DNA of 64,000 bases, taken from positions 64,001 to 128,000 of the forward strand of contig CBDCEW010000105.1 of NCBI GenBank assembly GCA_965215885.1, in the 5' to 3' direction. The position numbers and the translations under genes were made by a program. The DNA comes from Candidatus Moanibacter sp. (GTDB lineage: Bacteria > Verrucomicrobiota > Verrucomicrobiia > Opitutales > UBA2987). Positions 27,441 to 30,458 of the stretch are shown here, one piece after another; the stretch's first letter is position 1; each line of letters opens with the position of its first letter. Below the pieces are notes generated by a model that was not told where the DNA came from, did not search any database, and saw only the letters and a program-made list of their open reading frames with translations.

Positions 27441-27644
27441 CTAACGGATACTACTGTTAGGTCTGATCGATTTTGATCGACCTATAGCGAGCCTGCCGGC
27501 GATTCCCATCGTTTGAGAAACGGTGTGCGCTTGTTGCCGCAATCCGCGCGCGCCGGCGCGCGGATCGACTACTTCCGCATTTAGAGTCAACCACCACCCG
27601 AGTAACCATGTATGCAAGATGATCGATCTATGAATGGAATTCAT
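27441..27644 (-). CDS. Short cassette ORF, probably truncated
   Basis: Follows attC R' GTTCTGC and an RBS (AGGA). Ends at ACCTAAC-10bp-GTTAGTG. Confidence 0.35.
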   Translation of the reverse strand: MNSIHRSIILHTWLLGWWLTLNAEVVDPRAGARGLRQQAHTVSQTMGIAGRLAIGRSKSIRPNSSIR

Positions 27645-27658
27645 TTCCTATCTCGCTC

Positions 27659-27722
27659 GCAGAACGATGAAGCTCAGCCGCCGGACGCGTCAAAGGACGG
27701 ACGGCTGCAGCGGGTGTTAGGT
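27659..27722 (-). other. Integron attC site (64 bp)
   Basis: Minus strand: ACCTAAC ACCCG CTGCAGCCG...CGGCTGAG CTTCATC GTTCTGC. Confidence 0.85.
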
Positions 27723-27777
27723 CGCCACACGGGCACTATATTTTCTTCGAGATTGCAATGTAGCATAGCCTACTGTT

Positions 27778-29619
27778 TCAGCGATGGGATAGCAGCACCT
27801 CCCACTGCGTGTTATCCCTCAGATACTGATTAAGAAAGTCGAGGATGGCCTTATAGCCACAGGCCTGGTTTTCCTTTTTCACGAATCCATGCCCCTCATC
27901 ATCGAAGACTACATACTCGACGGGCACACCGTTGGCTCGCACGGCCTCGACGATCTCGTCAGACTCTACCTTCAAGACGCGCGGGTCGTTGGCGCCCTGC
28001 AAGACCATCAGCGGCTTGACGATGTTCTTAGCGTGGAAGAGCGGCGACTTGGCCTTGAAGAATTCCTCGTCGTCGAAATCGCCCATTTCCTGCTCAAGCG
28101 CCTTACGGAATGACTCCCACCACGGCGGAATGTTCTGCAGGGTGCGGTGCCAGTTGGAGATGCCAAAGATGTCGACGCCAGCATCGAAGGCCTCGGAGCG
28201 GAACGTCAGCGCGGCCAGCACCATGTAGCCGCCGTAGCTGCCGCCGATGATGCCGATGCGCTTCGGGTCGACGTAGCCGGTCTGGGCCAGCATTTTCTTG
28301 CTCTCGAGCACGTCGTCGAGGTCGGCATCGCCATGCTTGCGGTCGTCCATGTGGTAGAAGGTCTTGCCATAGCCGGAGCTGCCGCGGTTGTTGATGGCGT
28401 AGACGGCGTAGTCGTGGTTGACCAGATACTGGATGAGCGCGGTGTAGCCGATGCGACTCTGCCCACCGGGTCCGCCGTGGACCCATACGAGCGCCGACAC
28501 CTTGTTCTCTTCACTCGCCTGGTGAGGCGTGTAGACAATGCCTGGAATCTCCGTCCCATCATAGGAATCGAAGCGGACGACTTTGCCCTCGACCAGATCT
28601 TCCGGGTCGATGTTTTCGTTGAGCGAGCGGGTGAGGCGGACCGGCCCGTCGCCGGAGAAATCGTAGACGAAAAGGTCGCGCGGCATCTTGCTGCTGCTAG
28701 CGTAGAAGGCCATGCGATCCTCGTCGCGGGAGATGCTGACCGAGCTGATCTCGGCATCGGGCAGTTCCCGCAGCCTGACGCGCTCCATTGTGGCGGCTTG
28801 GTAGAGGCGCAGCTCCGTGCGGGCGTCGTTGTTGATGCCCGCGACCAGGTATTTTGCGTGTTTTGACAGGTAGGCATACAAGATGTCCCAGTCGGCCTCC
28901 TCGACCTTCTCGTGCGCACCATTGTCGAGGTCATAGCGCATCAGGTAGCGGAACTCGCTGTCCTTGTCGGTCAGGTAATAGAGATTCTGCCCGTCAGGCG
29001 TGAAGCCCATCGGCGCGTTGTTGACGTCGCCATCGTGCGGGGTCAAGTGCTTGCTCTCTCCAGTCTCGCTATCGTAGAGGTAGATGTCGCTGTCGGCGGT
29101 CGTTTCGACCTTCGAGAGCGCGATATAGCAGCGATCCGGCGTAATGCCCGCGAAGTTGTAGCCCTCATTGTTTTGATAGATCATCTCACGCTCGTACGAT
29201 TCGGCGTCGTACTCGTAGATGTCGAAGAAGCGCTGGTCACGCTCGTTGGTGCCGACGAAGAAGGACCGGTCATCCTGCGCCCAGCAGGAGAACATGGCCT
29301 TCAGGTTTTCGCCGGGTGTGAGGTCGGTTACGGCGCCGTCGGGCGTTTGGACATAGACGTGGTTGAGCTCGTTGCCGCCCTGATCGCTCGTATAAAGGAA
29401 GCGCTCGTCACGGGGGAAGTAGCCGATGACGAAGATCGAGTTGTCCGTTGAGTGTGTCAGCTGCTCCGGCTCGACGCCAGTGGGGATCGTGTAGGCGTTG
29501 TAGATACCGGAAGCGTCGCTACTGACGAGGATCTTGCTGTTATCCGGCGAGAAGGAAGCGCCGGTATAGTTCGTCGTACCGAGGAATTCATCAATGGTAT
29601 ACTTCCTGTACCTTCTCAT
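27778..29619 (-). CDS. S9-family dipeptidyl/acylaminoacyl peptidase (gene cassette)
   Basis: Beta-propeller N-terminus, VHGGP, GGSYGG, GANDPRV, DEGHG triad. Confidence 0.93.
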   Translation of the reverse strand: MRRYRKYTIDEFLGTTNYTGASFSPDNSKILVSSDASGIYNAYTIPTGVEPEQLTHSTDNSIFVIGYFPRDERFLYTSDQGGNELNHVYVQTPDGAVTDLTPGENLKAMFSCWAQDDRSFFVGTNERDQRFFDIYEYDAESYEREMIYQNNEGYNFAGITPDRCYIALSKVETTADSDIYLYDSETGESKHLTPHDGDVNNAPMGFTPDGQNLYYLTDKDSEFRYLMRYDLDNGAHEKVEEADWDILYAYLSKHAKYLVAGINNDARTELRLYQAATMERVRLRELPDAEISSVSISRDEDRMAFYASSSKMPRDLFVYDFSGDGPVRLTRSLNENIDPEDLVEGKVVRFDSYDGTEIPGIVYTPHQASEENKVSALVWVHGGPGGQSRIGYTALIQYLVNHDYAVYAINNRGSSGYGKTFYHMDDRKHGDADLDDVLESKKMLAQTGYVDPKRIGIIGGSYGGYMVLAALTFRSEAFDAGVDIFGISNWHRTLQNIPPWWESFRKALEQEMGDFDDEEFFKAKSPLFHAKNIVKPLMVLQGANDPRVLKVESDEIVEAVRANGVPVEYVVFDDEGHGFVKKENQACGYKAILDFLNQYLRDNTQWEVLLSHR

Positions 29620-29654
29620 ATTGTCTTTCCTCAAATTGTTTGGTGATTGAGGCG

Positions 29655-29783
29655 AGCTAACGCACCAGATCTGTGGCGCAACCAAAGATCGGCGATGCTG
29701 TTCAGATAGCCATGCGGTTCAAATCGCCGAAAACCAGAAATCGGTACACGCGTGGTTGCGTCCACTGAATTAGATTGTTAGAC
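29655..29783 (-). other. Integron attC site (129 bp)
   Basis: Minus strand: GTCTAAC AATCT AATTCAGTGG ACGCAACCA...TGGTTGCG CCACAGAT CTGGTGC GTTAGCT. The upstream gene stop lies in R''. Confidence 0.8.
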
Positions 29784-30335
29784 ATCAGTTCGTTGAGACC
29801 ATCTTGTTTGACTAAAGATAAAATGTTGATCAGCATGCGCAACGACATCAGGCGTTGCACGGTATCCGCGTAACCATAGCCCGTCCTCGAGTCGTCTCAG
29901 ATAAAAACCGTTCGGAAAGCCTTCCTCTTTCGATATCTTCTTCGACGCTATTATAATCGCACCTGACCCCGGTATGTTTGCCTTGTCGGAATGACACCCT
30001 TGGGGCTGATCAAAATACTGCAATCTCAAGTGAGGCCCGAGTTCAAGCGGGCACAGCTCGAGACCCAGTTCGATCGCTCTTTCGAAGTTCTGAGCCGCAG
30101 TGGCTCCCTCTGAGAAACCGAGGTCGCGAATTGTCAGTTCAACGGTCTTCAGCTTGTAGGAAGTCTTAGAGGTCGTAAAACGATCATCAGCGAAGAGCCT
30201 TTCTGCAGACACATTCATCGAGATCGCGTTTCTCTGTGATTCTTGCATCAGCTCCGATTTTGTAAGACCGCCCACATCGACCGTTCTCACGATGGTAGGA
30301 CAATCGGGGTAGATATTCTCAGTTTCGAGATGCAT
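29778..30335 (-). CDS. Conserved hypothetical protein (first gene cassette)
   Basis: Intact ORF with AGGAG RBS; motifs LGLELCPLELGPHLRLQY and GFYLRR...WLRGY. Confidence 0.8.
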   Translation of the reverse strand: MHLETENIYPDCPTIVRTVDVGGLTKSELMQESQRNAISMNVSAERLFADDRFTTSKTSYKLKTVELTIRDLGFSEGATAAQNFERAIELGLELCPLELGPHLRLQYFDQPQGCHSDKANIPGSGAIIIASKKISKEEGFPNGFYLRRLEDGLWLRGYRATPDVVAHADQHFIFSQTRWSQRTDV

Positions 30336-30355
30336 TGGGGAGAGTTTCTCCTGAT

Positions 30356-30458
30356 GCCTAACAAGTCAATATCGAGATCTGTACTATCCCGCTGGAGGAT
30401 CATGTCGTCAAGGTTAGATACCGCAGTTACGACGAATCCCTAACAGCTGTTCCTTACA
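30356..30458 (-). promoter_or_regulatory. attI-like/promoter leader, copy 2
   Basis: TTGACG-17bp-GATAGT, ending in the core site GTTAGGC. Homologous to 11859-11947. Confidence 0.6.

Follow-up and report, generated by a model that had tools for sequence, protein, structure and literature searches.

A probable orphan integron head with two gene cassettes in a Candidatus Moanibacter genome

How does a cassette array that has no integrase gene beside it come by its genes, and are these genes still expressed and exchanged? The question is raised by a locus in a 64,000-nt stretch of Candidatus Moanibacter sp. DNA (assembly GCA_965215885.1, contig CBDCEW010000105.1, positions 64,001 to 128,000), hereafter the window. 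It corresponds to C105:64001-128000 of a draft genome, labelled G000, of 6.36 Mb in 105 contigs with 90.3% completeness and 5.47% contamination. The original prediction had read here an integron-type array of three open reading frames (ORFs) and two attC-shaped palindromes, headed by a conserved leader and lacking an integrase. We consider it probable that the locus is an orphan integron head, namely the attI site and predicted cassette promoter (Pc) of a long-form integrase (IntI) without its gene, behind which two cassettes were loaded by a cognate integrase that has since decayed.

The array and the descent of its leader

On the minus strand the leader (30497-30363) and the core GTTAGGC (30362-30356) are followed by ORF1, attC1, an S9 peptidase gene, attC2 and ORF3, the last being convergent with a sulfatase gene. 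The features are as follows (the slash in G/TT marks the crossover point).

30490..30492, plus strand: ATG at the spacing of the divergent intI start in stub-bearing leader copies (DNA alignment); no IntI-like protein follows
30363..30497, minus strand: leader, by its sequence the intI-attI intergenic region of a long-form integrase without its gene; conserved TGTAAGGAAC motif at 30458-30449
30383..30411, minus strand: predicted Pc-like sigma-70 promoter (TTGACG-17-GATAGT), directed into the array; 9/12 matches in a consensus scan
30356..30374, minus strand: attI simple site (L box, 5-nt spacer GACTT, core G/TTAGGC)
29778..30335, minus strand: cassette 1 gene (ORF1), 185 aa, conserved family without assigned function
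29655..29783, minus strand: attC1, 129 nt, R'' GTCTAAC, in which ORF1 has its stop codon, and R' GTTAGCT; 33.4 bits, E 1.9e-5 (E rough)
27778..29619, minus strand: cassette 2 gene, 613-aa S9 (prolyl oligopeptidase family) peptidase with beta-propeller and catalytic domain; PF00326, E 7.7e-48
27659..27722, minus strand: attC2, 64 nt, R'' ACCTAAC, degenerate R' GTTCTGC; 31.4 bits, E 5.5e-5 (E rough)
27441..27644, minus strand: ORF3, 67 aa, with a hairpin repeat inside at 27536-27567

The attC sites were scored with a covariance model, the check that the original prediction had proposed. Scanning of 85 intI loci from other genomes by a heuristic gave 48 candidates, 35 of which were kept by score, core and orientation. 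The model built from these 35 foreign sites, a training set selected by our own heuristic whose pairs covary, though the selection favours covariation, ranked the two palindromes first and second among 8 window matches (filters off), the third having 16 bits. Bottom-strand folding gave z -2.75 for attC1 (2 of 200 shuffles as good) and z -0.70 for attC2 (47 of 200), the weaker site of the two. In attC2 the R' retains GTT and does not match RRRY; paired AAC and GTT were found in both sites. The cassette-end matches first noted, GTTAGGCATCAG vs. GTTAGACATCAG (11/12) and GTTAGCTCGCC vs. GTTAGGTCGCC (10/11), hold, and on circularization the ends of cassettes 1 and 2 rebuild one attC each, which is not the case for ORF3. 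The stop codon predicted to lie in R'' is there for ORF1, but that of the peptidase lies 56 nt upstream of attC2. In the whole genome a separate score (threshold 21) returned 38 attC-like matches vs. 3 in the reversed genome, a few of them being perfect palindromes counted on both strands (true number about 30-38); the matches form clusters on many contigs.

The array contains two cassettes, not three, because ORF3 belongs to no Pfam family, has no attC behind it by the covariance model and holds the hairpin repeat; a usable protein-atlas match was also lacking. Both palindromes of the predicted array stand at their positions, and ORF3, its third member, is probably debris: the beginning of a third cassette gene that was truncated and runs into the hairpin repeat, rather than an intact cassette. 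As predicted, a tyrosine recombinase ORF was not found in the window (tblastn with two IntI proteins, best E 0.10), and on this contig no IntI-like piece lies closer than 233 kb, so that the array is not a complete integron with intI beside attI.

The genome-wide search for intI that had been suggested revealed one intact IntI, a short-form enzyme on another contig (C100:128269-129219, 317-residue frame, 432 bits, cut-off 265); an attC array belongs to it, and an ISAs1-like element lies immediately upstream. Incomplete IntI pieces are also present in this genome. One is an N-terminal copy (90%), another a long form with a frameshift at C105:327k, and further scraps belong to a third, long-form lineage.

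The leader, judged by its sequence, is the intI-attI intergenic region of a long-form integrase and not of the surviving short-form one, because four lines of comparison agree. (i) In genome G205 a leader-like element lies divergent from an intact 451-aa IntI (TIGR02249, 379.6 bits, cut-off 265), and the window leader aligns colinearly with this intI-adjacent DNA from the TGTAAGGAAC motif to the core (global score 75 vs. a maximum of 64 in 500 shuffles). Close relatives of the G205 IntI were present in 17 of 201 genomes of the class to which G205 belongs. (ii) The same attI ending lies upstream in 9 of 13 related long-form IntI loci that have the gene 5' end (at most 2 in 1,000 shuffles); several of these genes have a stop within or at the edge of the match. 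(iii) IntI scraps adjoin four of the nine leader copies of G000 (C101, E 1.6e-13; C100:80.8k, E 5.4e-12; C4, 13 codons; C100:156k, residues 248-290 at 60%), neither window copy being among them, and the window leader is colinear with the stub-bearing copies (global scores 113 and 92). (iv) A hidden Markov model (HMM) built from 12 copies of other genomes only found the window leader at E 2.5e-6 and 8 of the 9 G000 copies at E < 1. The leader was already described as conserved in the original prediction: a second copy lies in the window (83% over 78 nt), and the genome has nine, eight found by HMM and the ninth on C101, with 42-76% identity across some 100 nt. A -35/-10-like pair is present in every copy, and most copies close with an L box, a spacer of 5 nt and GTT. 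Behind three leader copies GAT stands in place of GTT.

At the window leader the L box, 5-nt spacer and GTTRRRY core lie together without a hairpin, as in an attI simple site, the site being two bases off the common AATCACTT spacer region, and we infer a crossover point between 30362 and 30361. As an attC the leader was rejected (8.3 bits under the covariance model; fold z +0.5/+1.0), and an Rfam scan yielded one match, by chance. A core-like heptamer is also present about 80 nt upstream at the leader. The promoter scan of the leader region found 6 sites vs. 2.0 +/- 1.6 in shuffles (consensus match only), with the spacing conserved in 7 of the 8 genome leader copies shown. RNA-library contigs from one study cover parts of both cassette genes; they carry no strand, start or level.

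A different origin, the leader as an attI of the short-form IntI split off by an insertion sequence (IS), was considered and rejected: both sites abut an ISAs1-like end, but this end occurs >60 times and the flanks do not join. Of 80 metagenomic short-form IntI loci, 67 had >200 nt of flank, and in the DNA upstream of these nothing leader-like was better than E 0.19.

Several side observations concern the integrases. An ISAs1-like element with a DruA-domain ORF lies in the window at 35316-36053, and one of the >60 genomic occurrences of its end sequence is directly upstream of the intact intI. An imperfect palindrome is found just upstream of three short-form intI starts (C100:128230-128250, C100:114960-114980 and L107:135-155) and could be a repressor box. 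At C19:48444-50111 a C-terminal long-form intI scrap, interrupted by a transposase-like ORF that we take to be IS91-like from its motif, is followed by two attC sites; by its layout this locus is probably a destroyed cognate integron.

Cassette joining at leaders, and solo heads in relatives

An integrase inserts cassette circles at the G/TT of attI, pushing older cassettes away from Pc. Comparison of leader copies, mostly other than that of the array, argues that cassettes join at the leader's G/TT. A two-cassette block is common to C4:951-2000 and C100:124707-123658 with 99.5% identity (5 differences in 1,050); its start is at G/TT, which in C4 follows the leader and in C100 follows an attC, and its end lies inside the core of the second attC. 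We surveyed 42 leaders, 39 in stretches of four relatives and the 3 of the 9 in G000 with a scored attC. An attC came next downstream within 3 kb in 18 of them, and the ends of these 18 are in agreement at 94 of the 162 positions past GTT, compared with a mean of 59 and a maximum of 83 in 20,000 permutations (all 18 kept, including one misplaced boundary and two cassette-sharing pairs). Of five filtered cross-genome leader pairs, three remain homologous into shared DNA downstream; in two the homology (1,099 and 347 bp) stops exactly at GTT, as it does in an additional pair after 242 bp (92.6% identity). A contig of another study bridges the window leader into the same first cassette.

The C4 leader itself is interrupted (~600-870) by an ORF-less ~280-bp element with inverted ends, the intI start lying on the far side. 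Further duplicated cassettes, both inside one array and shared by different arrays, were seen at C63:2426-2990/8543-9107, at the C49 and C90 contig ends and at C100:124.7k/C105:325.5k (99%, 99.6% and 80-83% identity).

Could the leader be nothing but a reused mobile promoter, the cassettes having landed by chance at a secondary (attG-type) GTT and been selected for expression? Promoter reuse has been described (PMC3575422), and there is no detectable attC behind 24 of the 42 leaders. The conserved unit, however, reaches through L box, spacer and core at a fixed distance, as beside intact intI genes; four leader copies carry intI scraps upstream; and homology breaks at the same GTT in three genome pairs, whereas attG needs no more than GWT anywhere. 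We regard this explanation as very improbable.

On the preferred reading, that of an orphan head, copying or import of a whole integron or of its front end, followed by loss of intI, would have given rise to the head. The cognate long-form IntI would then have loaded the cassettes, their circles recombining into the leader's G/TT, and later have decayed in this genome. Because insertion at attI pushes older cassettes away from Pc, the peptidase cassette would have entered first and ORF1 last. The predicted promoter would now transcribe both cassette genes. Since no cognate enzyme is present in the assembly, the attI end is likely frozen, and excision of cassette 2, through recombination of attC1 x attC2, is the most that the short-form IntI could do.

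The original prediction had the array mobilized in trans. In its most developed form this makes the head a live satellite landing pad, still loaded and unloaded by the short-form IntI, with the chromosome acting as one integron with many docks. An intact IntI does exist elsewhere in the genome, well over its cut-off; its array and the array headed by the C4 leader have the 99.5% block in common, with exact G/TT junctions; the 30-38 attC-like matches extend across many contigs; and IntI1-3 are described as inserting at bare GWT sites in Escherichia coli (bioRxiv 10.1101/2022.09.11.507474). Against this, the enzyme is short-form and its upstream region differs and is cut by the ISAs1-like element, strict attI specificity has been reported (PMC2095811), and the common block could have moved from C4 into the IntI's array, or while the cognate enzyme lived. 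Cassette-skipping, excised or re-loaded joints at att sites were absent from 8 runs of contigs, which drop rare variants, and the contig of the other study has the same first cassette. Joints seen in the peptidase came from other organisms. We hold such a live pad to be unlikely, and trans mobilization at this head to be supported only in part.

Several results weigh against the orphan-head reading. At the leader, a profile search found no IntI remnant at protein level beside the window copy (at the ATG, 30490..30492, E 5.7 or worse), the likeness of this copy to the G205 region is modest (HMM E 0.0012 with relatives' copies, 0.06 with G000 copies), and the attI-ending pattern behind the 9 of 13 loci was loosened to fit the window copy. 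In the junction survey, 24 of the 42 leaders lack an attC within 3 kb or ahead of the following leader, only 3 of the 9 G000 leaders pass the attC score threshold, and two leader pairs among the 18 carry a common cassette and so are not independent. The 99.5% C4/C100 block represents recent cassette traffic at another leader, which fits a frozen head poorly, and at 90% completeness a cognate IntI could be missing from the assembly.

Solo heads of this kind were searched for in other genomes. In 151 order-level genomes, strong multi-copy matches to the leader model occurred only in G039, G066 and G088; 26 of the genomes had matches at E 0.05 or better, most of them single weak ones that were left uncounted. 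In 401 phylum genomes the leader pattern matched three, one probably by chance, and it had 0 matches in viral contigs. A pattern from the relatives' copies gave 17 in G039, 7 in G066, 14 in G088, 0 in G108 (82% complete), 2 in G205 and 0 in reversed controls, and a related, different pattern gave 0-2 per genome in five genomes that keep a long-form intI locus. Some of the relatives' copies retain the first codons of long-form intI. In the four genomes of the G039/G066/G088/G108 family no IntI was found at E 1e-30, the best matches being Xer-like.

About 17 leaders lie within 40 kb of G039 (C1:2.855-2.905 Mb, L147-L149) as a tandem array of heads, and many of the G039 leaders precede one small unit, a four-helix-bundle-like gene or its deleted form with a degenerate attC, and then the next leader.

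The number of heads and their distance from intI might be thought an artefact of a draft assembly or of mixed strains. The fragmentation and contamination of the assembly and the divergence among its nine copies (42-76% identity) would allow it, and draft genomes are described as overcounting CALINs (attC sites grouped together without an integron integrase; PMC9024848). The array, however, is 94 kb away from the closer end of its 431-kb contig, and 26601-31000 was recovered from public contigs in two overlapping pieces with 0-1 differences, probably from the source sample and so not independent. In G039, a single contig that is 94% complete, the 17 copies occur with no IntI. An artefact seems to us the least credible of the explanations weighed here.

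A REP-like (repetitive extragenic palindromic) heptamer was present within 330 nt upstream of 16 of 40 non-G000 copies vs. 11.5% of random windows from the same loci, and of 1 of the 9 G000 copies vs. 3% of random windows; these repeats are a lead to how heads multiply, not a mechanism. A broader idea is that of a distributed integron, in which Pc-attI heads multiply themselves, probably aided by REP-like repeats, and still capture and swap cassettes with an integrase from elsewhere, giving ten to twenty expressed docking sites per genome. We advance it tentatively, rating it clearly below an even chance. With nine orphan heads in this genome and 7-17 in some integrase-less relatives, the genes so captured probably are expressed, and probably were exchanged, at a distance from any integrase.

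Cassette genes and neighbouring features

ORF1 has 549 homologues among 678 candidates, and no Pfam or NCBIfam family matched it. Its structure model (predicted local distance difference test, pLDDT, 84) is a small alpha/beta protein, for which Foldseek returned weak C-type-lectin-like matches alone (E 0.29 or worse). The label 'helicase' borne by some public records (e.g., Bacillota) was rejected, having no family, PDB sequence or fold support. Homologue loci with context numbered one from genome contigs (37% over 54 residues) and one among 400 other phylum genomes; the latter homologue has two stops and, by our scan, no attC. The cassette 2 peptidase is an ordinary S9 enzyme, with best named homologues at 81% (Chloroflexi) and 76% (the cyanobacterial Leptolyngbya). 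The guanine-plus-cytosine content of the peptidase gene (0.587) and of ORF1 (0.491) lies on either side of that of the genome (0.532), a gap expected of separately acquired genes.

The region of ORF3 was considered as a decayed leader and rejected (no match by the leader HMM). At its end, 24 nt (27433-27456) contain R''-like and R'-like heptamers 10 nt apart, possibly an attC with its middle deleted. The 26-bp hairpin inside ORF3 (27536-27567), which starts GATCCGC, has copies elsewhere in the genome (C32:7688, C100:117013 and C101:98878) and at L155:4863 of G006. In three leader copies from two genomes the GATCCGC hairpin replaces GTT right after the leader spacer; an element or mini-cassette that recombines at a GAT core may begin with it.

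The second leader copy of the window has a decayed cassette of its own.

11866..11947, minus strand: second leader copy, L box and spacer deleted; the 83% match covers 11870-11947
11442..11865, minus strand: decayed single cassette behind it, a frameshifted membrane-protein-like ORF with a shortened attC (11442-11489)

The attC of this cassette has 16 bits (E 0.15), and its ends match at 11 of 12 positions.

Two short-repeat families with dozens to hundreds of genome copies lie at 30845-31032 and 31253-31420, 350-900 bp upstream of the array's leader. A dioxygenase-like two-gene unit occurs twice in the window (9843-11001 and 31705-32865), each within about 1.5 kb of a leader copy, and a DDE transposase also twice (20091-21572 and 33623-35293).

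Comparison with known systems

With at least two attC sites and no intI nearby, the array is a CALIN by the definition given in PMC4889954 and PMC9024848, and CALINs are common. Two-cassette CALINs are the commonest size (1362 of 2961) in the preprint of Loot et al. (bioRxiv 10.1101/2022.09.11.507474), and half of CALIN-bearing genomes are reported to have IntI elsewhere (Cury et al., 2016). The present array resembles these in its two attCs, in having no intI nearby and in the IntI elsewhere in the genome. It differs in keeping an attI and a Pc-like promoter, and so is likely expressible, while split-off CALINs are described as cut off from Pc (Cury et al., 2016). The CALIN-like, attI-retaining array of the original prediction is supported, and can now be linked to one integrase lineage in particular. 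The usual view of CALINs as silent and decaying stores comes from the blindness of present tools to attI or Pc outside class 1-3 integrons; IntegronFinder detects attI in class 1-3 only, which leaves solo heads uncounted. The head kept by this two-cassette CALIN is traceable to a definite line of integrases. Should solo heads prove common, many CALINs would be expressed loci and possible landing pads, and counts of 'integrase-less' arrays would need re-reading.

Diverse environmental attI simple sites, including marine attI families, have been described (Elsaied et al., 2011; PMC3146285). Like the attI and Pc of chromosomal integrons (attI1; PMC3146285), the window site has an inverted L box, a 5-nt spacer, a GTTRRRY core and a predicted promoter directed into the array, and its G205 homologue is divergent from an intact intI. 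Unlike them, it has no intI beside the head and exists as nine diverged copies here, with 7-17 in IntI-less relatives.

Trans mobilization of CALIN cassettes is already in print (PMC9668308; bioRxiv 10.1101/2025.06.18.660453). For its use at this head the published work points both ways: attI specificity is reported as strict and attC tolerance as broad (Demarre et al., 2007; PMC2095811), whereas low-specificity insertion at GWT sites is described by Loot et al. (bioRxiv 10.1101/2022.09.11.507474). Matched components for testing this directly exist in these genomes: G205 has an intact cognate IntI, and a non-cognate IntI and naturally varying leaders are also at hand.

In the attG sites and SALINs (single attC sites lacking integron-integrases) of Loot et al., cassettes likewise lie off the integron platform, are expressed if near a promoter and join at a GWT core. 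Here, in contrast, the target is a conserved unit of 100 nt that derives from an integron and is homologous to intI-adjacent DNA along roughly that length, and not an arbitrary genomic GWT, which sets the locus apart from that class. In the full-text literature searched, which lacks most subscription journals, we met no account of genomes with many solo Pc-attI heads at whose orthologous copies cassettes are exchanged.

Putative mobile promoters (Nijveen, Matus-Garcia and van Passel, 2012; PMC3575422) are also similar promoter-like stretches before unrelated genes. The leader differs from them in descending, by the comparisons above, from an intI-attI region and in ending in the core where cassettes would join. 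This link to an integrase supplies sequence grounds for choosing the attI over the mobile-promoter reading of such leaders.

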